64,000 nt of DNA, taken from the NCBI GenBank assembly GCA_045651525.1, contig JAZRSO010000004.1, positions 17,127-81,126 of the forward strand, written 5' to 3'. Both the position numbers and the translations under genes were made by a program. This document shows, piece after piece, positions 750 to 58,127 of this stretch; the stretch's first letter is position 1; every line of letters starts with the position of its first letter. Below the pieces are notes generated by a model. The model searched no databases. It was not told where the DNA came from and saw only the letters and a program-made list of their open reading frames with translations. The DNA comes from Candidatus Enterousia sp. GTDB lineage: Bacteria > Pseudomonadota > Alphaproteobacteria > Rs-D84.

Positions 750-1256
750 TTATTTTCGATTTTGATAGTTGTCGCACAGATGGGCGATTTTATTTTTTGC
801 AAACATTTTAGCGTGAAATGCATCGTAGAAAATGCGCGATGTTTGAATTTCGCCAAAAGCATTGATGTAACGCTCAATTACTTTTGATCCGATTTTTGGG
901 ACAAATATACCGCGAATAATTTCTGATGAAAATATACAGTGGTGTTTGCAACCGATACAGCAATCAATGTCAGGTGTTGTTAATTGGTCTTTTTCTATAC
1001 GGTAATCTGTGAAATCGTCGCATTGATGTGACAGTAATTTTGCTGCATTTATTGCATCGTGTGCGGTTGTGTATGCTTTTGCTAGTGGACGATTGTTTCC
1101 GTGTTGGTCTTTGGTATATATTTGTACTTCGTTATTTTTGGTTGGTAAATATTTTTGTTTGCCGTCAATAGTTGTTACTTGTAATGCCCCAAGGGTGCAC
1201 AGTTTGTTGCAACCGTTGCATTTATTTGTATTTATGCCTTTTGTTTGTGTGAACAT
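750..1256 (-). CDS. Small cytoplasmic Cys-rich protein, paralog 2 (CNGCNKLC and CIGCKHHC, ending in LCDNYQNRK).
   Basis: The ORF spans 750..1283. The start is the ATG at 1256 (MFTQTKGINTNKCNGC). It lies 5 nt from the stop of paralog 3 and is about 50% identical to paralog 1. Confidence 0.6.
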   Translation of the reverse strand: MFTQTKGINTNKCNGCNKLCTLGALQVTTIDGKQKYLPTKNNEVQIYTKDQHGNNRPLAKAYTTAHDAINAAKLLSHQCDDFTDYRIEKDQLTTPDIDCCIGCKHHCIFSSEIIRGIFVPKIGSKVIERYINAFGEIQTSRIFYDAFHAKMFAKNKIAHLCDNYQNRK

Positions 1257-1261
1257 TATGA

Positions 1262-1762
1262 TTATCTTTGATAGTTGTCGCACAGGTTGGATATGTGTTG
1301 TGCGCGTTTGATGGCCATATCTTGTGATTCATAGTATGGTACGTTTTTTGTAAGACCGCGTTTGTTTTTGTATTTTGTTATCGTTTTTGTGCCAATAACA
1401 GGTAAAAATCCATCACGATTTTGTGTTGATATATGTTGCGCAGCAAGTGTGCATTTACATTCGCAACCGTGACATTGTGTGTCTGTGAATGTTTGTGCGA
1501 CTGGTTGTGGTGGTGCAACGTAATGTTTGCAAGATTTTACAGCGGTATATGCGTGTGATAATGCGACGGTTGCAGAAACGTATGTTGTAATAAAATGCTT
1601 TTTGCCGCTTTTATCACGATAGTGCGGTATTGGCTGTCCGTTCTTTGTTGGGCGAAAGTTTATATAGTTGTCGTATAATACGACGGCCTGGACACCCAGT
1701 TTGCACCTGCGGTTGCAACCGTTACATCTGCCGATATGAATAGATTGTTCTTGGGTAAACAT
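1262..1762 (-). CDS. Small cytoplasmic Cys-rich protein, paralog 3 (RCNGCNRRC and CHGCECKC, ending in LCDNYQR).
   Basis: The ORF spans 1262..1762 and begins MFTQEQSIHIGRCNGC. It has the same architecture as paralogs 1 and 2. Confidence 0.6.
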   Translation of the reverse strand: MFTQEQSIHIGRCNGCNRRCKLGVQAVVLYDNYINFRPTKNGQPIPHYRDKSGKKHFITTYVSATVALSHAYTAVKSCKHYVAPPQPVAQTFTDTQCHGCECKCTLAAQHISTQNRDGFLPVIGTKTITKYKNKRGLTKNVPYYESQDMAIKRAQHISNLCDNYQR

Positions 1763-3145: not shown

Positions 3146-3376
3146 AAAATTCTTTGTACTTTTATTATGTGATGTGTTATAATTCACAGGTCAACGGGTG
3201 TTTGTTGACTGGGTTTAGCGACCCATTGGTAAGCGTCATGTAAAGACGTAAAAACTTATTCCAACCATTGGTTGGAGTGTGTGAATATATTGAATAAGCA
3301 CGCAATTCTTACTATTGTCGCTAAACTCCAACCACTCGTACAATAAAATACGGTGGTTTTTGTTTTGGGGGATGTG

Positions 3377-9426: not shown

Positions 9427-10893
9427 TTATGCGTGAATTTTGCGGTCTATCAAGTATGCAACAGGCAGGTATATTATGCCGTATCCGCCAATTGCCAGTC
9501 CCAATACCCATATATTGGAAATCGTAATGGTTGACAGACCCATACCCAGTAATGTCGCCCATGCGCCGAATGCAATAATACTGCGTACTGTGCGTCCGTC
9601 GTGTTTGACAAGTCCGCGTTTGTGACACGCACGCCCCAGTAAATAATTTTTTAGATAACCGCTGACAACAACGCCAATTGGAATCGCCAGATAGCCTACA
9701 ATTGGGAACAATATTAAATACAATACGGCCGCAATACTAAGTGATATAATACTTGTCTTGACAGGTGTTTTAACATCTTGGGCGGCGTATAGTGTTTTGC
9801 TGTATATCTGGCTGACCAGCATCGCGGGTAATACGAAAACCTGAATCATAATTGCCAGTGCAACTGCGTGTGTTGATTCAGATGTCCATGCGCCATATTC
9901 AAACAGAAATTTAATAATTGGTTCTGCCAAGACAAATAAACCCACCACGCATGGCAATATCAGCATCATAGAACGACGCAATGAAGAGTTCTGTTGTATA
10001 TAGACGCTGCGAATATTATTATTAGCCAGCGCATTTGATATAGACGACATCAGAACTGTTCCAACAGCCAATCCAATCATTGCAAATGGTAATTGCACAA
10101 TTCTGTCTGAATAATACAGCCATGATACAGCACCGCTTTGAAAACTGGCGACCAGTGTGCCGACAATAATTGTTATTTGATAGAAACCGTTGCCAACGAT
10201 ACTGACCCCTAGTCTTTTAAACATACTTTTTATCTGTGGGGTCCAGCGTGGCTTAATCAGATACAGTCCAAAGTGATTTCTGCGTATGCGCGACCATAGA
10301 ACGCCGAACTGAATAATTCCAGATAATACAACCGTGCCAGCCATTAGGTACAAGATATGCGTGCTGCCAAACGCCATGGCGAACAGTAATGCACATATCA
10401 ACATAATGTTTAACAATACCGGCATAAATGCTGCCAACAAGAACTTTGAAAATGCGTTTAATATTGCAGACAAGAATGCTGCACCGCATATAAAGATTAC
10501 ATATACAAACATTATACGCGATATAATAACAGTCATTTCCATTTTCCCAGGTGTCGCGTCAAACCCAGGTGCCAATCCCCATACGACCAGTGGCATAAAT
10601 ATTTCAAACAGTATTGTAATGCCCAGTAATATCAGTAATAACCACGAAAAAGCATTACGGGCAAAATGTTCGTCTTTTTTGGAATCTGTGTACATGGGAA
10701 TAAAGATTGCAGACAATGCCCCTTCGCCCAGCAGGTCACGGAACATATTCGGCAACTTGAACGCCGCCAAGAATATATCAGACATGCGCCCTGCCCCCAG
10801 TACGCGCGCAATCAGCATATCGCGAATGAATCCGAATATACGGCTGATACCAGTCATGGCACCAACCCCGAAAATATGTTTGCCTAGTTTCAT
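9427..10893 (-). CDS. murJ: Lipid II flippase MurJ/MviN.
   Basis: The N-terminus matches the MurJ signature (GISRIFGFIRDMLIARVLGAG..SDIFLAAFKLPNMFRDLLGEGALSAIFIP). The protein is polytopic and 488 aa long. Confidence 0.9.
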   Translation of the reverse strand: MKLGKHIFGVGAMTGISRIFGFIRDMLIARVLGAGRMSDIFLAAFKLPNMFRDLLGEGALSAIFIPMYTDSKKDEHFARNAFSWLLLILLGITILFEIFMPLVVWGLAPGFDATPGKMEMTVIISRIMFVYVIFICGAAFLSAILNAFSKFLLAAFMPVLLNIMLICALLFAMAFGSTHILYLMAGTVVLSGIIQFGVLWSRIRRNHFGLYLIKPRWTPQIKSMFKRLGVSIVGNGFYQITIIVGTLVASFQSGAVSWLYYSDRIVQLPFAMIGLAVGTVLMSSISNALANNNIRSVYIQQNSSLRRSMMLILPCVVGLFVLAEPIIKFLFEYGAWTSESTHAVALAIMIQVFVLPAMLVSQIYSKTLYAAQDVKTPVKTSIISLSIAAVLYLILFPIVGYLAIPIGVVVSGYLKNYLLGRACHKRGLVKHDGRTVRSIIAFGAWATLLGMGLSTITISNIWVLGLAIGGYGIIYLPVAYLIDRKIHA

Positions 10894-11668: not shown

Positions 11669-11695
11669 AATCCCCCATTTGGGGGCTTTTTTATT
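11669..11695 (+). terminator. Rho-independent terminator after bamD.
   Basis: TCCCCCatttGGGGGcttttttatt lies immediately after the stop at 11668. Confidence 0.7.
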
Positions 11696-11696
11696 A

Positions 11697-11728
11697 TTGA
11701 AAAAGATGTAAATTTTGATAGAATATAA
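11697..11728 (+). promoter_or_regulatory. Candidate sigma70 promoter of a structured leader or sRNA upstream of the secreted protein gene.
   Basis: TTGAAA is followed by a 16-nt spacer and TAGAAT/TATAAT. Downstream lie about 200 nt of hairpin-rich sequence ending in a terminator at 11915..11945. Confidence 0.35.
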
Positions 11729-11914
11729 TTTGAACTGACAGGGATGTCGGTTCGGGCCTTAGAAAAGCCAAACAGTTTCGGTGCAAAACGCATCGTAAAT
11801 CCGATGATGTCGGTGTTTTTGCACCGTTATTTTTACCACCCCCGATTATGGTCGGGGTGCCGTTGTAATATATTGAACGCAACGGGGTCACTAAACTGTT
11901 GATTTTTCTAACAC

Positions 11915-11945
11915 CCCGACCGTCATTTCTGTGACGGTTTTTGTT
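11915..11945 (+). terminator. Terminator or attenuator hairpin immediately upstream of the secreted protein gene start.
   Basis: GACCGTCAtttctgTGACGGTttttgtttt ends 13 nt before the ATG at 11958. Confidence 0.5.
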
Positions 11946-11957
11946 TTGGGAAAAATC

Positions 11958-12935: not shown

Positions 12936-13379
12936 AGAGATTTTTTCAACGCGTCTGACGCGGCGTTCGCAGTTGTCAAATGGACTTTCCAAAAATGCCT
13001 GAACAGTCAGGAATGCAACCTCGATATCAATGTCGTCTGCGGCCAATGCCAAAACATTTATATCGTCGTGAAATCTGTCGTCGCGTGCCTGGTTCGGTGT
13101 GTTGCAACGTGATGCACGAATGTGTTTATATCTGTTCGCGGCAATCATTACGCCCGCCCCTGTGCCACAGATAATAATACCGCGTGAATTTGGGTCGTCC
13201 AACATTGCATCTGCCAATGTCGCGGCAACATCTGGGTAATCCGCAGATGTGTTCGGATCGTCAACCCCTAAATTTACAGCGTTATATCCAGCTGCAGCCA
13301 ACATTTCGATTAAGTATAATTTCAATCCAACCCCACGATGGTCGGCCGCAACAAAAACACGTGATACATTTTTATTCAT
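12933..13379 (-). CDS. rpiB: Ribose-5-phosphate isomerase B.
   Basis: RpiB/LacAB signature (RVFVAADHRGVGLK..IIICGTGAGVMIAANR). Its start overlaps the bactofilin stop as TAATG. Confidence 0.85.
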   Translation of the reverse strand: MNKNVSRVFVAADHRGVGLKLYLIEMLAAAGYNAVNLGVDDPNTSADYPDVAATLADAMLDDPNSRGIIICGTGAGVMIAANRYKHIRASRCNTPNQARDDRFHDDINVLALAADDIDIEVAFLTVQAFLESPFDNCERRVRRVEKIS

Positions 13380-16811: not shown

Positions 16812-17609
16812 ATGACAATACATCCAACTGCTATTATTCACGAAGGCGCTAAAATCGGTGCAGATTGTAAGATTGGGGCATACTGCATTATTGGGCCAAA
16901 TGTTGTGCTGGGTGATCGTGTGGAATTGGTTTCTCATGTCGTTATTGACGGAAAAACATCGATTGGTGATGATTCTATTGTGTACCCTTTTGCAGTACTG
17001 GGCGTAATGAGTCAGGACTTAAAATGGCAAGACGAAGCCGCAATGACAGGTCTGCGTGTTGGTAAGCGTTGCAGAATTCGTGAATATGTAACAATTCATT
17101 CTGGAACACCTGCATCAGATGGTACGGTTATTGGCGATGACTGTCAGATTATGGTTAATGCGCACGTTGGTCATGACTGCAAGATTGGTAACAGTGTTGT
17201 TATGTCTAACCTGGTTCAGGTCGCCGGACATGTAGAGGTTGAAGATTTTGCAATTTTATCTGGTGGTGTAATGGTCTTGCAGTTTGCACGTATTGGACGT
17301 AATGCGTTTGTTGGGGGAATGTCCGGGGTCAGCAATGATGTCTTGCCGTATGCGATTTATGATGGTGCGCGTGCTGTATATCGTACAATCAATCGCGTTG
17401 GCCTGATGCGTCACGGATTTACAAACGAAGATATGCATGCGATTCATTCGGTGTATTCTGCGGTATTCCGCACAGACGAAGGTACTGTTGCAGAACGCTT
17501 GGCCAAGGTTCGTAAAGAAGTAAAAAATAACAAATATGCGATGGACGCGATTGACTTTATTGAAAACCGTTCAAAGCGTGGAATTGGTACATCAAAAAAT
17601 GCAGAATAA
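16812..17609 (+). CDS. lpxA: UDP-N-acetylglucosamine O-acyltransferase.
   Basis: Left-handed beta-helix hexapeptide repeats begin with MTIHPTAIIHEGAKIGADCKIGAYCIIGPNVVLG. The protein is 265 aa and overlaps lpxB. Confidence 0.9.
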   Translation: MTIHPTAIIHEGAKIGADCKIGAYCIIGPNVVLGDRVELVSHVVIDGKTSIGDDSIVYPFAVLGVMSQDLKWQDEAAMTGLRVGKRCRIREYVTIHSGTPASDGTVIGDDCQIMVNAHVGHDCKIGNSVVMSNLVQVAGHVEVEDFAILSGGVMVLQFARIGRNAFVGGMSGVSNDVLPYAIYDGARAVYRTINRVGLMRHGFTNEDMHAIHSVYSAVFRTDEGTVAERLAKVRKEVKNNKYAMDAIDFIENRSKRGIGTSKNAE

Positions 17610-18726
17610 GAAAAAGCGCATTTTTATAATCGCTGGCGAAGTTTCCGGCGATGTCTTGGGTGGACGTATCATGTCCGAAATGCCAAATGCAGAATTCGTT
17701 GGTGTTGGTGGCGAAAATATGCAACGGGCGGGTTTAAAATCCTTGTTCCCGATGTCTGATTTGGCGGTAATGGGAATAATAGAGGTGGTTGCCCACGCAA
17801 AAACGCTGACCAGACGTATTAAACAGACGGTTGATGCAATATTAGAATATAAGCCTGATTTGGTTTTGACAATCGATTCGCCTGGCTTTGCAAAAAGTGT
17901 TATTAAACAGATTCGTAAAAGTGATGATGGACAAAAACTGATTGATTCTGGGTTGCGGTTTCATCATGTTGTTGCGCCCCAGGTTTGGGCATGGCGTTCT
18001 GGGCGTGCAAAAAAGTATGCCAAGATATTTGATAAACTGTATGCATTTTTTGATTTCGAATTGCCTTATTTCACAAAATATGGATTGGAAACAGTTGCTG
18101 TTGGACACCCGATTGCAGATGGGTTAATTGGTAAATATAAATCACAACAGTCTGAAAAGATTATAACTCTTATCCCAGGCAGCAGAATGAGCGAGGTAAA
18201 ACGCCTGATGCCACTGATGCGCGATATTGTAGATAGACTGGTTCGCAATGGGTATCGTGATTATCGGTTTGTAATACCAACTGTGGAAACAACAGAACAA
18301 TATATCAAGGACACAGTTAAAAATTGGGCGGTTACACCAACGTTGGTGCCGTCATCTGAACGATATGATGTTTATGCCAAGACATACATTGCGATTGCGG
18401 CCAGTGGTACTGTATCTGCGGAACTGGCGATGTTGCATGTGCCGACGGTTGTTGTATATAAAATGAATCCGATAACAATGTGGATTGGTCGCAGACTGAT
18501 TCATGTAAAGTGGGTGTCGCTGGTAAATATTTTGCTGAATCGTGGGGTTTATCCAGAATGTTTGGGTGGCGATGCAAATGTTGATTGTGTGTTAGATTCT
18601 GTGCAGAATTTAACAATACCATCCCAGCGTGAAAAAATGATTTCTGATTTAAAAAGTGCGGACAAACTGTGGAAAAAGGCACATGGTGGCACGTGCGCAT
18701 TGATTGCAGAACATTTGTCAAAATAA
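17599..18726 (+). CDS. lpxB: Lipid-A-disaccharide synthase.
   Basis: The N-terminus (KRIFIIAGEVSGDVLGGRIM) and the rest of the protein match LpxB throughout. The start overlaps the lpxA stop. Confidence 0.9.
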   Translation: MQNKKKRIFIIAGEVSGDVLGGRIMSEMPNAEFVGVGGENMQRAGLKSLFPMSDLAVMGIIEVVAHAKTLTRRIKQTVDAILEYKPDLVLTIDSPGFAKSVIKQIRKSDDGQKLIDSGLRFHHVVAPQVWAWRSGRAKKYAKIFDKLYAFFDFELPYFTKYGLETVAVGHPIADGLIGKYKSQQSEKIITLIPGSRMSEVKRLMPLMRDIVDRLVRNGYRDYRFVIPTVETTEQYIKDTVKNWAVTPTLVPSSERYDVYAKTYIAIAASGTVSAELAMLHVPTVVVYKMNPITMWIGRRLIHVKWVSLVNILLNRGVYPECLGGDANVDCVLDSVQNLTIPSQREKMISDLKSADKLWKKAHGGTCALIAEHLSK

Positions 18727-26858: not shown

Positions 26859-26900
26859 ATAAATTAAATATAATGGCATATCTATAAACAAACCCACAAC

Positions 26901-27074
26901 CTCATGTAACTTCTGTACACTACGGTTGTGGGTTTGTTCATATCTATACCATTCTATTTAATTTCTTCGCTAAGTGTGGGTGGTGGTGGCGCCCCTCATG
27001 TAACTTCTGTACACTATGGTTGTGGGTTTGTTCATATCTATACCATTATATTTAATTTCTTCGCAAAGTGTGGG
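26901..27074. repeat. Tandem direct repeat of two copies, each 94 bp and about 93% identical, with a flanking 13-bp stem hairpin.
   Basis: Copy 1 is 26901..26994 and copy 2 is 26995..27074. Both read ctcatgtaacttctgtacactayggttgtgggtttgttcatatctataccattmtatttaatttcttcgcwaagtgtggg. The stem CAAACCCACAACC (26889-26901) pairs with GGTTGTGGGTTTG (26924-26936). Confidence 0.8.
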
Positions 27075-39121: not shown

Positions 39122-39150
39122 AAAAAGCGCACCGTTTGGTGCGTTTTTTT
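39121..39150. terminator. Bidirectional terminator shared by tolA (+) and rnpB (-).
   Basis: aaaaaaGCGCACCgtttGGTGCGCttttttt. The rnpB 3' end abuts it at 39151. Confidence 0.7.
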
Positions 39151-39457
39151 ACAAGACAGACATATAAGCCGGGTTCTGTTCTGCCATAAATAGTTTGCAC
39201 TTTTTATGGTAGCGAGCATGATTAATCTGCATTTTGCATTACTGCAAATGTCAAGCCTTCTACCCGCCCCCAATGTGGGACACATATACGGGGGCCTATT
39301 TGAAGTTGCTGTACGTAGAGATTGCCCGTTTCACCCGAATTTAATCGTATCGTCACTGTTGCTCTAATCGTCAGGTCACCCTGCCCGGTATATTAGCCGG
39401 TACGTTGTCCCATACAGCCCGGACTTTCCTCTGATATAAAAATATCAGCCATGCTCA
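39151..39457 (-). ncRNA. rnpB: RNase P RNA, bacterial type A, reduced to about 307 nt.
   Basis: The reverse complement contains the P4 halves AGGAAAGUCCGGGCU and ACAGAACCCGGCUUAU. It also contains GGGUGAAA, GCAACAG and CAAAUAGG...GGGUAG blocks. P1 pairs ACAAGA with UCUUGU. Confidence 0.85.
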
Positions 39458-39460
39458 GTC

Positions 39461-39493
39461 CATCTTGTGGATGTTATGTTATCAATTTTTTAT
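39461..39493 (-). promoter_or_regulatory. Candidate rnpB promoter.
   Basis: On the minus strand, TTGAAA (39493-39488) is followed by a 21-nt spacer and TAACAT (39466-39461), about 5 nt upstream of the inferred 5' end. Confidence 0.4.
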
Positions 39494-47221: not shown

Positions 47222-47280
47222 CTGTTGCGTCAAATGTGGAAAAAATGATAAAATGCAAAAAAGAGAGAAAGAAATTGAAG

Positions 47281-49812: not shown

Positions 49813-51111
49813 ATGAGAAAAAGTGTTTGTTTTGCGGTATTAATGACTTTGTTGGGAACAAATAATTTGTTCGCTGCTCAGCGTTCCGATGGTGCAATTT
49901 TTCGTGATAAATGGAAAGTTGAAAGCTTTAATAATGAATGGACCTGTAAAGGTTGTATTACAGATACTGGAATTAATGTTAGAACAAGTAGTTATACGTA
50001 TTTTAATACCGATATGGGTAGTTATGGAAATTATGGTGCTGTTTACTATGTTGCACATGAAATGGTTGAAGGTGGTGCAAAGTTTTGTAAAACAATAATT
50101 GCGGCAGATCGTGGCAATTGCCATGGTAACCCATATACTACATATTATAAATCTGGTGACGATTGTTTTTGGTTATGTGAATCTGGTTATCATGGTGCGG
50201 GGTGTGCCAAGGTTAATGATGGCGCGGCTGATACATGTCAATCGTTTGAGCGGTTTGTAGAACATACACCCAAAACACATTTGAGTTCTTATACCCCTAG
50301 CACAGATATTGATACAACGATACCAATGTTTTATTATGGGGTATATAAATCCTGTTCGGGAAACAACATGTCATGTTTAAATTCAAGTAAGGGACAAGAG
50401 CATGATGTTGTGCTGGCAATTAGCGAAATAAAAAAGGACACATCAGATTCTTCTTTAGAAATTTATGCTCAACCTTTGGTGGTACGTGCTGGTGGGACTA
50501 GCCAATGTTTGTATGGTGGACAGTACCATGCGTGGCCGTTTTTTTTATGGGTATCAGACTCAGAATTATTATGTCCAGAGGGTTGGGTGCATAAAAATGG
50601 AAAATGTGTGGTAGATGACGCGTCTGAGGCATGTCATTTGGCGAATTTATGTGGTGGTTTTCCAAAGGAAAAATTCGACCCTAAAATATATTATACAAAA
50701 AAGTCTATTATCGATAACTGCTATGAATATCGTTGTAATAGTGGTACGGCATTTACATCCAAGGATGATTTGACGTGTACGCCATGTGCACCGGCCGATG
50801 CCGAAATTCCAGAATTGTATTATGTGCCTAATGATGGGCTATGCCATTCTTGTAACAAGGGAAAATGGCCTGTTGCACTAACACAAACTGTGGAAAATAA
50901 AGAAGTTCCTAGTGGTGAGTACGATTGTAAGGACGCAAAACCATTTACACATAATGAATTGCAATATGGACAAAAAACTGTTCCAGATACGGTTACAGTT
51001 AATCAATGTTGGACCAAGCAAAATCCTGATGATTTCTTTGGTTGTGTGACAGGCAAGTGTTCAAATGGTAAATCGTGGACAAAAGATGGCGATTGTGAGG
51101 GGGGGGAATAA
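49813..51111 (+). CDS. Secreted Cys-rich protein of 432 aa with CxxGY/CxxGW-type repeats.
   Basis: The signal peptide is MRKSVCFAVLMTLLGTNNLFA. Motifs include DDCFWLCESGYHGAGC and CPEGWVHKNGKC. The protein contains about 38 Cys. Confidence 0.6.
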   Translation: MRKSVCFAVLMTLLGTNNLFAAQRSDGAIFRDKWKVESFNNEWTCKGCITDTGINVRTSSYTYFNTDMGSYGNYGAVYYVAHEMVEGGAKFCKTIIAADRGNCHGNPYTTYYKSGDDCFWLCESGYHGAGCAKVNDGAADTCQSFERFVEHTPKTHLSSYTPSTDIDTTIPMFYYGVYKSCSGNNMSCLNSSKGQEHDVVLAISEIKKDTSDSSLEIYAQPLVVRAGGTSQCLYGGQYHAWPFFLWVSDSELLCPEGWVHKNGKCVVDDASEACHLANLCGGFPKEKFDPKIYYTKKSIIDNCYEYRCNSGTAFTSKDDLTCTPCAPADAEIPELYYVPNDGLCHSCNKGKWPVALTQTVENKEVPSGEYDCKDAKPFTHNELQYGQKTVPDTVTVNQCWTKQNPDDFFGCVTGKCSNGKSWTKDGDCEGGE

Positions 51112-51204
51112 TACCTAAATACCAATATTTGGGCAATGCTCAGGTTGCTACAAAATAATACTCTGATTGCCACTTTAAACAGTATGTATGTGGAACAAAA
51201 ATAA

Positions 51205-51232
51205 AAATCCCCGTTTTGGGGATTTTTTTACG
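51205..51232 (+). terminator. Terminator of the ATCCCC/GGGGAT type preceding the GC-rich repeat.
   Basis: aaaaATCCCCgttttGGGGATttttttacg. Confidence 0.6.
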
Positions 51233-51250
51233 CCCCCTTTATCACTCTTA

Positions 51251-51999
51251 CCGTCATACCTGCCTTTACCGTCATACCGGCGCAGGCCGGTATCCATTGC
51301 GTTCGTATTTCTTTGGCTTTGGTGGAATGCAGTGGACCCCGACCTGCGTCGGGGTGACGCCAGAATAAACCCTTTGTCACGCCTGCGCGGGAATGACAAA
51401 AGAGAACAAACCCACCCCGTCCGCTTCGCGGGCACCCCCCCCCGCAGGGGGCGGAACGCCCCGGCGACGGAGGGGAACTTACCACCGGTTTTAAGTTCTC
51501 CTCCCTGGGAGGAGTACGGCGCAGCCGGGAGGTGGGTTGCCCCTGCCCCCGTGTGGGGCGAGGAATAAATACCCCCCCCGTGGTGCCTGATGCACACCAC
51601 CCCTCCGTAGGAGGGGAATTTTACTCCCTGCCCCTTTTTTGTCACGCCTATCGTAGGCAGGAGTGGGACTATACAGTGTGAAAAAAAATTCGTCATACCG
51701 GCGTAGGCCGGTATCCATTGCGTTCGTATTTCTTTGGTTTTGGTGGAATACAGTGGGGACCGACCTGCGGGGGGGTGGCGGGGTAGTTGGATTTTTGTCA
51801 CGCCTGCGGGGGAATGACAAAAGAGAACAAACCCACCCCGTCCGCTTCGCGGCCACCCCTCCCCGCAGGGGGCGGAACGCCCCGGCGACGGAGGGGAACT
51901 TACCACCGGTTTTAAGTTCTCCTCCCTGGGAGGAGTACGGCGCAGCCGGGAGGTGGGTTGCCCCTGCCCCCTTTTTTTGTCATGCCTATCGTAGGCAGG
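51251..51999. repeat. GC-rich, hairpin-dense composite element duplicated in tandem. Copy A (about 51271-51691) carries an 86-bp insertion relative to copy B (about 51692-51999). It is a REP/RIME-like or structured-RNA candidate.
   Basis: The two copies are about 90% identical with a 421-bp period. Both start gtcataccggcGYAGgccggtatccattgcg. Internal palindromes include ATACCGGCgcagGCCGGTAT, CCCCGACctgcGTCGGGG, GGGGAACTTAccACCGGTttTAAGTTCTCC and CTCCTCCCtggGAGGAG. A long-range pair joins AAACCCACC and GGTGGGTT. Local GC is much higher than in the flanking sequence. Confidence 0.8.
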
Positions 52000-52074
52000 G
52001 GTGGGGAAAAGGTGCAAAGAAAGAATAAAAAAATATATTGGAATTGTGTTTGTTTGCTGTTATTATGCCAATGC

Positions 52075-58040: not shown

Positions 58041-58127
58041 GGGGATATGGCGGAATGGTAGACGCTGAGGACTTAAAATCCTTTGATCATTGCGATCGTG
58101 TGGGTTCAAGTCCCACTATCCCCACCA
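58041..58127 (+). tRNA. tRNA-Leu (anticodon UAA), class II with a long variable arm. The 3' CCA is encoded.
   Basis: The acceptor stem pairs GGGGATA with TATCCCC. The anticodon loop is CTTAAAA. The T-arm is GTGGGTTCAAGTCCCAC. A long variable arm is present. The gene is 87 nt. Confidence 0.85.

Follow-up and report, generated by a model that had tools for sequence, protein, structure and literature searches.

Introduction

RIMEs (Rhizobium-specific intergenic mosaic elements) and other rhizobial palindromic repeats are mosaic intergenic palindrome elements in an alphaproteobacterium. The Rickettsia palindromic elements (RPEs), from a host-associated alphaproteobacterium, are AT-rich, have a fixed length and can sit in frame within open reading frames (ORFs). 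The intergenic mosaic elements of Neisseria (NIMEs) are composed of repeat (RS) elements, blocks of ~50-150 bp that fall into many families, flanked by dRS3 inverted repeats of consensus ATTCCC-N8-GGGAAT; they form arrays, and they have been described as not observed outside the genus Neisseria (PMC1797815). Repetitive extragenic palindromes (REPs) can be paired as REPINs and are associated with tyrosine transposases (RAYTs); for REPINs and RAYTs we follow the definitions given in two reports (PMC3337134, PMC3116915). Here, we compare these systems with a GC-rich, hairpin-dense block at positions 51270-52005 of a 64,000-nt stretch of DNA from Candidatus Enterousia sp. (assembly GCA_045651525.1, contig JAZRSO010000004.1, positions 17,127 to 81,126), which we call the window. 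The block lies between a gene that starts at position 49813 and a dacA-like gene, hereafter dacA.

We conclude, with a probability of roughly 0.8, that the block is a lineage-specific intergenic repeat array, non-coding and largely selfish, that is made of hairpin-forming modules and resembles NIMEs, REPs and the bacterial interspersed mosaic elements (BIMEs). It is neither a strict NIME, nor a classical REP, nor a miniature inverted-repeat transposable element (MITE), nor a known RNA family. The array is ordinary in kind, and it is gained and lost among related gut alphaproteobacteria. An earlier note, made from the letters of the window alone, had listed a RIME/REP-like mosaic, a MITE, a non-coding RNA (ncRNA) gene with a pseudo-copy and a horizontally acquired regulatory island as candidates. 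The first of these is borne out by dispersed modules that change in order, orientation and copy number and by palindromes of the dRS3 class; the other three fare poorly against the evidence given below.

A tandem array between a terminator and a promoter

The 49813 gene has a bidirectional intrinsic terminator (51203-51233), in which the hairpin AAAAATCCCC-gtttt-GGGGATTTTT at 51203-51227 is followed by a T run, and directly after it the array begins. The array ends ahead of a plus-strand promoter-like site for dacA (52038-52066; TTGGAA, 17 nt, TATTAT, with an extended -10) that lies outside it, so the position first assigned to the block was correct. It consists of two head-to-tail copies with a spacing of 421 nt. 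Copy 1 has the length of 421 nt originally given for it, and copy 2 has 315 nt, not 308. Positions 51270-51550 and 51691-51971 align without gaps over 281 nt at 91.8% identity, in agreement with the initial estimate of ~90%. Within this alignment, 51373-51550 and 51794-51971 are 98% identical, and the terminal modules at 51635-51667 and 51973-52005 are 94% identical. The divergence is uneven: the region of copy 2 that corresponds to the x hairpin described below (~51757-51793) was apparently replaced rather than point-mutated, and the remainder is 97-100% identical. An insertion had also been noticed in one copy; it is present, but by alignment copy 1 has 83 nt, not 86, that are absent from copy 2. 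This stretch is bordered by a 9-nt direct repeat, CCCTGCCCC, at 51541-51549 and 51625-51633. Because such a repeat is the signature of these events, the 83-nt difference probably arose by recombination or slippage between the direct repeats. The two copies themselves may have originated through unequal recombination or slippage between modules. A partial duplicate of the left edge of the first module, TTACCGTCATACCTGC, precedes the array on the plus strand (51248-51263, 94% identical to 51266-51281). Tandem Repeats Finder returned no rows for the block, since it holds fewer than two full copies.

A duplicated repeat can also be the product of faulty assembly. The source is probably a short-read metagenome-assembled genome (MAG), and a spurious ORF of 280 aa runs across the block on an 82-kb NCBI contig. 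Nevertheless, the two copies are distinct sequences, with 8% divergence, an indel of 83 nt and one segment replaced, and similar tandem arrays occur in independent assemblies. We therefore consider a false duplication to be hardly credible.

The block is indeed richer in G+C than its surroundings, at 61% in a window of 41% (0.413); values across 51200-51999 are 0.52-0.68, against 0.31-0.47 in the flanks. Compared with dinucleotide shuffles, its 749 nt fold with z = -7.8 as RNA and z = -8.3 as DNA, and none of 20 shuffles was equally stable. The claim that it is non-coding had been founded on the statement that all six reading frames are open. The inference was right, but the argument was not: minus frame 0 alone is free of stops (249 codons), and the other five frames have 4-8 stops each, with ~7.6 expected from composition. 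This stop-free frame (51175-52017, minus strand) has been deposited in the public assembly as a 280-aa protein, P0001. Another deposited sequence, P0002, is a real cysteine-rich secreted protein with ~120 residues of translated repeat at its N-terminus. P0001 and the N-terminus of P0002 are annotation artefacts. Exact look-ups of the TatD protein of the window, of P0001 and of P0002 returned no entry by which the source contig could be extended.

GC skew is positive across the array region; the plus strand is thus, on the usual reading of skew, the leading-strand sequence and the lagging-strand template. Between 51000 and 52200 there are 8 promoter-like hexamer pairs (0.9 expected), six of which are on the minus strand. 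Three of those six are inside the array, and in each the first hexamer is the foot of a palindrome (TTGTCA, GTGACA or ATGACG). The same scan found no promoter-like site on the plus strand within the array. Terminator-like hairpins with T runs occur inside it at 51600-51616 and 51952-51968. Given the promoter-like pairs, the array may give rise to outward or antisense transcripts.

Anatomy of the modules

All of the palindromes that the earlier note had picked out are present. Each copy has, on the plus strand, the order m1, 39 nt, x, 13 nt, m2, A-loop-B (131 nt), y with a second A-type unit (complete in copy 1), and m4. Judged by sequence, m1, x, m2 and m4 are palindromes of the dRS3 class. 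In copy 1, m1 (51270-51296; cGTCAT-ACCGGC-GCAG-GCCGGT-ATCCA) has an 8-bp stem and a GNAG loop, and its core, ATACCGGC-GCAG-GCCGGTAT at 51274-51293, is a stem variant of dRS3 with the same foot and loop. It is followed by the 39-nt spacer x0 (51297-51335), whose halves are mutually complementary, and by x (51336-51359; CCCCGAC-ctgc-GTCGGGG-TGACG), an inverted variant of the dRS3-like palindrome that pairs with m1 in a REPIN-like hairpin. A hand alignment of m1 with the reverse complement of x gives 20 identities in 26 positions and three compensated stem pairs. Together, m1-x0-x (51268-51361) makes one hairpin of ~90 nt, with -53.5 kcal/mol on the plus strand. The doublet of copy 1 has 7 G.U pairs on that strand versus 2 on the minus strand; in all nine copies of the doublet from four contigs, the plus strand has 6-10 such pairs versus 0-2 on the minus strand.

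The module m2 (51373-51402; TTTGTCACGCC-tgcg-CGGGAATGACAAA) is a degenerate, inverted palindrome of the dRS3-like kind. Half-element A (51408-51480) extends from AAACCCACC via nested GC hairpins to GGAGGGGAACTT, and its first hairpin covaries between loci (GTCCGC/GCGGGC, GTCAC/GTGAC, GCCC/GGGC). The 3' end of A and the 5' end of B pair in a stem that is capped by an 11-nt loop, ACCACCGGTTT (51481-51491); the loop varies between loci, and in three of the related arrays described below (copy 1 of contig L001, and contigs L002 and L003) this end is open. Half-element B (51492-51538; TAAGTTCTCCTCC-ctg-GGAGGAGTACGGCGCAGCCGGGAGGTGGGTT) contains a near-invariant core of 43-47 nt, which is 95-100% identical in L001 copy 1, L002, L003, L006 and L007 and 89-95% identical in L001 copy 2; only its hairpin loop varies. 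The segment at 51539-51630 is the insertion noticed earlier and occurs in copy 1 only. It comprises module y (GCCCCTGCCCCC-gtgt-GGGG) and another, short unit of the A type (CCACCCCTCC-gta-GGAGGGGAATTT), and it has equivalents in L006 and in L004 (7440-7510). Copy 1 closes with the palindrome m4 (51631-51669; TTTTGTCACGCCTA-tcgt-AGGCAGGAGTGGGAC), which is found at 100% identity in L004 (9974-10007) and L007 (542-572) and in inverted orientation in the close relative L129.

Alignment to copy 1 places m1 and x0 of copy 2 at 51691-51756. Its x hairpin (51757-51793) is degraded or replaced and is the sole strongly divergent stretch between the copies; the m1-x doublet folds more weakly here, at -40.0 kcal/mol. 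It is followed by m2 (51794-51823, 96.7% identical to that of copy 1) and by an A-loop-B repeat of 98% identity at 51829-51959 (A 51829-51901, loop 51902-51912, B 51913-51959). The right end of the array (51960-52005) is made up of a remnant of y, a T run and m4, and homology to L129 restarts at ~52028. The palindromes have GTCAT at the foot (GTCAC in variants), and GTAG is confined to some of the loops, such as those of m1 and m4 in copy 2.

Palindromes of this class are not confined to the lineage. In L007, positions 268-287 fit the dRS3 consensus exactly and carry GTCATTCCCGCGCAGGCGGGAATCCA. As a query, this palindrome finds at least 40 matches per record in Neisseria gonorrhoeae, at 92-95% over 37-38 nt, and further matches in Photobacterium, Cupriavidus, Azospirillum, sphingomonads, Aeromonas and Legionella. 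A palindrome of L001, ATCCCCGC-GCAG-GCGGGGAT, is a stem variant with the same foot and loop as dRS3. The degenerate pattern GTCATNCCSGCGNAGGCSGGNATCCA occurs in at least 120 stretches of IMG/VR, on contigs of 39-72% G+C, often as inverted doublets 20-60 nt apart. Both free stem positions are Watson-Crick pairs in 165 of the 166 IMG/VR occurrences, with four pair types. The 8-bp stem with its GNAG loop shows clean covariation.

The same modules in related bacteria

The search of related genomes that had been suggested, with translated frames and the B core as queries, recovered array modules in eight contigs (L001-L008) of Candidatus Enterousia-like bacteria. L001 is from a Candidatus Enterousia sp. 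MAG, an alphaproteobacterium; L002 and L003 are from one JGI metagenome, and L004-L008 are from gut-type assemblies in ENA. Two module loci occur within 20 kb in L001, and likewise in L004. A scan of GTDB representatives with back-translated peptides, whose patterns are narrow, gave L001 as its sole match. The B core had 0 matches to viral sequences, and there was no sign of a phage attachment site.

What differs between these loci is how the modules are put together. The order A-loop-B is found in the window, L001 copy 2, L006 and L007. In L001 copy 1, B abuts A directly, a circular permutation, and in L002 and L003 B is followed by a 60-nt AT-rich spacer and then by A. A stands alone at 7440-7510 of L004, and a diverged B stands alone, after m1-x-m2, in L005 and L008. 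Copy number also differs at shared positions: L003 has two 186-nt units where L002 has one, between flanks that are 86-89% identical, and L005 has three units of ~218 nt (m1 start to start) where L008 has two. The content of the blocks between palindromes differs in L004, L005, L006, L007 and L129. In L005, the B hairpin CGGC-GCA-GCCG has become GGCC-GCA-GGCC. All loci are oriented the same way as an adjacent gene. The arrays of the window, L004 and L006 begin directly after the T run of a terminator, and that of L003 begins ~55 nt after one.

These modules are independent, dispersed units that have been recombined into differing orders, orientations and tandem copy numbers. Their arrays occupy intergenic DNA at or shortly after intrinsic terminators, with the exception of L001 copy 2 (13225-13345), which is in frame within a 435-aa ORF (L001 12431-13738, minus strand). 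Directly downstream of the A-loop-B copy, this ORF encodes a DUF559 (Vsr-like nuclease) domain (Pfam E = 6e-27); its N- and C-terminal parts have no family match. The ORF may represent a gene into which a cassette of nuclease and repeat has been inserted. There are no DUF559 homologs in the window or at the other loci, and we found no literature that links DUF559 to such repeats.

Orthologous sites with and without arrays

Three loci with dacA homologs were compared with the window. In L129, where the dacA product is 95% identical, the 500 nt upstream of dacA hold a different mosaic, composed of m4-like and other palindromes without m1-x and without A or B. In L130 (86%) and L131 (81%), ~100 nt of AT-rich spacer and no array lie upstream of dacA, and the next gene upstream is a different one, divergently oriented. 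These loci bear on the suggestion that the block is a cis-regulatory region, either a long leader of dacA or a horizontally acquired regulatory island. The array is directly upstream of dacA, and its two terminator-like hairpins with T runs would suit such a role. However, the array is upstream of the promoter-like site of dacA, a site that L129 conserves beside the different mosaic, and dacA manages without any array in L130 and L131. We regard a cis-regulatory region as very improbable.

A second site shows the same variability. At 11669-11735 of the window (plus strand; interval 11669-11930) there is no array, and the orthologous spot of L006 has one of ~385 nt (835-1220), which comprises an m2-like palindrome, A-loop-B and a 3' portion of A. 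It begins directly after the terminator of a bamD-like gene and precedes a homolog (64% identity) of the window gene at 11931. The insertion is flanked on both sides by TTTTAT. Could the block, then, be an ordinary MITE, with terminal inverted repeats and target-site duplications, that inserted twice? Like MITEs, the repeats are short and dispersed, and they are present or absent at orthologous sites; the paired TTTTAT could be taken for a target-site duplication. However, this hexamer is part of the T run of the terminator and is too AT-rich to count as one. The ends of the window array, CCGTCATACC... and ...GGCAGGGGTGGGG, are not terminal inverted repeats, and it has no convincing target-site duplication. 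Further, its units are shuffled modules rather than a single fixed element, and its copies stand head to tail with common junction modules, which fits duplication better than two insertions. We give the MITE explanation very little weight. Over the time in which strains and species diverge, the array has been reshuffled, tandemly amplified and lost.

Gene content beside the array varies as well. The 49813 gene (49813-51111), which encodes a 432-aa cysteine-rich secreted protein, is missing from L129 (compared over 1-670), where a homolog of the window gene at 47236 is followed directly by the different mosaic. The arrays in the window, L001, L005, L129 and P0002 adjoin genes for cysteine-rich secreted proteins or for homologs of the 47236 protein (3.5-3.9% Cys).

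Could A-loop-B be an RNA?

The circular permutation raises the possibility that A-loop-B is a structured ncRNA gene in two tandem copies, with a fold that tolerates an open end on either side. As read from the sequences, the two gene orders are compatible with one set of helices, in which the stem AACCCACC/GGTGGGTT or the stem GGGGAACTT/AAGTTCTCC is the open end; the A/B element thus appears to keep its helices in the permuted forms. Single-sequence folds show this in the forms of L001 and L003 and, on the minus strand, in that of the window. Those of L001 (z = -4.8, -5.8) and L003 (z = -6.2) are significant. An RNA would also account for covariation in the first hairpin of A and in the B hairpin of L005, for a B core that hardly varies, for the common orientation of all loci with an adjacent gene, and for the surplus of G.U pairs on the plus strand of the nine m1-x hairpins.

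Other observations oppose an RNA gene. Rfam, a check that had been recommended, was scanned with the region at E <= 10, with the whole window at gathering scores and with L002 and L005-L008 at E <= 0.1. No known family was recovered in the block even at E = 10 above chance level, its best scores being 15-28 bits against gathering scores of 44-134, and there was no match in L002 or L005-L008. The A-loop-B copies of the window barely beat their shuffles (z = -2.2, -1.5), and their minus strand is equally or more stable. Located behind a terminator, the element has no promoter-like site on its own strand anywhere in the array. Orthologous loci lack it, A and B are also found singly, and one copy is in frame within the 435-aa ORF of L001. 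Lastly, hairpin covariation and tolerance of G.T pairs on one strand are equally expected of hairpins in single-stranded DNA. We take the block to belong to a family of DNA repeats that works in a single-stranded form; an ncRNA gene, with or without a pseudo-copy, is improbable. Hammerhead and twister ribozymes and a two-piece tmRNA, which permutation and tandem repetition had brought to mind, were also considered; no core motifs were apparent by eye, and there were no Rfam matches.

Comparison with described repeat systems

The NIMEs are among the closest counterparts of the repeat array. The palindrome architecture is the same, and in L007 the sequence is too (GTC-ATTCCCGC-GCAG-GCGGGAAT-CCA). 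In both systems, palindromes separate blocks of several families, here of ~40-135 nt; the number and content of repeats vary at syntenic positions (the window versus L129, L130 and L131; L003 versus L002; L005 versus L008; L006 versus window 11669-11930); and arrays adjoin genes for variable secreted or surface proteins. The differences are that the palindromes of the window have other stems (ATACCGGC or degenerate ones), that the blocks between them are rich in G+C and in hairpins, whereas the G+C content of RS elements is below that of dRS3, and that no dRS3-integrating phage or Piv/IS110-type recombinase was seen. Since the host is an alphaproteobacterium and not Neisseria, we refer to the array as NIME-like.

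Like REPs and BIMEs, the modules include short imperfect palindromes that lie in intergenic DNA after terminators and are amplified in tandem; like BIMEs, they form mosaic clusters with alternating orientation and linker motifs. The inverted doublet m1-x0-x, with its long hairpin, recalls a REPIN, and the strand-specific hairpins are consistent with action on single-stranded DNA, as for REPs. Unlike REPs, the palindromes have no conserved GTAG at the hairpin foot, having GTCAT...ATCCA instead, and the gene that they bracket encodes a GIY-YIG nuclease rather than a tyrosine transposase of the HUH type.

RIMEs invite comparison through Sinorhizobium meliloti, in which palindromes (ATCCTCGGG-N5-CCCGAGGAT) bracket a GIY-YIG gene just as the dRS3-like ones do. 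These S. meliloti palindromes, the sequences that were compared, are unrelated to the window modules. The in-frame L001 copy 2 resembles RPEs by description; also by description, the window modules differ from them in being GC-rich and shuffled, whereas RPEs are AT-rich and of fixed length.

Small GIY-YIG nucleases between palindromes

One of the related arrays contains a gene. In L004, the mosaic runs m4, m2, A, truncated B, m1-x, gene, x, m1-like palindrome, and the gene (10438-10752) encodes a GIY-YIG protein of 104 aa. A 23-nt x hairpin is 100% identical on its two sides. Small GIY-YIG genes together with palindromes were found at L004, L011, L048, L073, L096, L119, L121 and L132-L149. Six of the at least 120 IMG/VR loci that were picked by their palindromes contain a GIY-YIG homolog (45-50% identity), flanked by palindromes in every case.

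A set of ten PLSDB loci was chosen by homology to the GIY-YIG protein alone (tblastn), and the flanks were extracted. In 9 of the 10, the same perfect palindrome lies ~50-105 nt upstream of the gene and again at most ~60 nt downstream; the gene of L004 is bracketed more loosely than this. The loop of the downstream palindrome is usually reverse-complemented (CTTGA and TCAAG), and in Aeromonas this palindrome overlaps the stop codon of the GIY-YIG gene. Within 200 nt of the gene, the density of perfect hairpins with stems of at least 8 bp is 11.7 times that in the remaining 96 kb of flanks. The stems differ between lineages: ATCCTCGGG in Sinorhizobium, Neorhizobium and Shinella, ATCCCAGGG in Rhizobium, ACCCCGGG in Sphingobium, GCCCCGTG in Novosphingobium, and dRS3-like stems in Azospirillum and Aeromonas, with ATYCCCGC also among the stems. 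The Azospirillum cassette lies between sufB and sufC. In N. gonorrhoeae, the GIY-YIG gene lies within a dRS3 array. The bracketed genes encode proteins of ~95-105 aa (COG2827/SLX1-like) and occur in alpha-, beta- and gammaproteobacteria.

GIY-YIG genes that lie between their own palindromes resemble RAYT genes that lie between REPs, as the latter are presented in two papers (PMC3337134, PMC3116915). These facts raise the possibility, which we advance tentatively and hold to be less than an even chance, of a widespread and undescribed counterpart of the REP-RAYT system, in which small GIY-YIG nucleases are bracketed by the hairpin repeats of their own lineage and presumably mobilise or maintain them. 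The repeats in such a partnership would include Neisseria dRS3 and the rhizobial and sphingomonad palindromes, and arrays of the type in the window would be their non-autonomous progeny. A literature search found no paper that links GIY-YIG proteins to REP-like repeats, and a sequence search of the PDB with the L004 protein gave no match. We also considered whether 51355-51372 of the window is a remnant of a GIY-YIG gene; only 9 nt are shared with the 3' end of the L004 gene, and we do not count this as evidence.

How the array may spread

The modules may spread through a single-stranded hairpin form, either on the lagging-strand template or as RNA. We suggest action on a single strand because the doublet needs G.T or G.U pairs on one strand only and because all copies are co-oriented with a neighbouring gene. 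A structure-specific nuclease or recombinase would probably act in trans as the catalyst. The leading candidate for this enzyme is the small GIY-YIG nuclease found inside the L004 array, although we give its involvement less than an even chance. The array may also strengthen termination after the 49813 gene or insulate dacA from it. By analogy, it may raise recombination beside genes for variable cysteine-rich secreted proteins; a recombination hot spot next to variable-protein genes has likewise been proposed for NIME arrays (PMC1797815).

Several points weigh against a selfish, NIME/REP/BIME-like repeat array. Its modules occupy one locus in the 64-kb window and do not recur outside the block, versus hundreds of places for classical REP or NIME families. 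By homology search, the window encodes no GIY-YIG or DUF559 homolog, and tblastn with an Escherichia coli RAYT sequence, a weak test, found no match in the window or L001-L008. The 43-nt B core is near-invariant across genomes while A varies; this is unlike neutral selfish DNA and points to a specific constraint. The strand asymmetry in G.U pairs amounts to few independent observations, since the nine doublets share ancestry. Finally, the comparison sequences are all short-read metagenome assemblies, in which repeat copy numbers may be collapsed.

Other features of the window

Two known RNA genes lie at a distance from the array. RNase P RNA, which had already been located outside the block, is of class A and is at 39148-39467 on the minus strand (191.6 bits), and a tRNA-Leu(TAA) gene is at 58041-58127.

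We also observed a conserved leader of ~150-200 nt upstream of genes for secreted, often cysteine-rich proteins, which ends with a terminator-like hairpin and GGTTTTTGTTTTGGG. It occurs in the window at 11735-11950 and 3190-3370, in L006 at 1230-1470, in L001 at 10340-10620 and in L002 at 1169-1316 (minus strand); the window and L006 forms are ~90% identical. It has no Rfam match at gathering scores, and it may be an attenuator or a riboswitch-like leader. A second family of long palindromic repeats, AT-rich and ~105 nt in length, is centred on ACAACCTCATGTA...TACACTACGGTTGT. It is present, partly in tandem, at 26861-27060 of the window and at three places in L001 (within 9931-10040 and 17546-17906).

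Implications

For this locus, the outcome is mostly one of clarification: the block is a repeat array, neither a gene nor a riboswitch. More generally, arrays of a NIME-like kind, with dRS3-type palindromes as their framework, are found beyond Neisseria in gut alphaproteobacteria that have not been cultured. Such arrays change more rapidly than their flanking genes; they can therefore serve as strain markers, but they also endanger correct assembly and annotation. The small structure-specific GIY-YIG nuclease is a testable candidate for the long-missing enzyme of the dRS3-, NIME- and RIME-type repeats.

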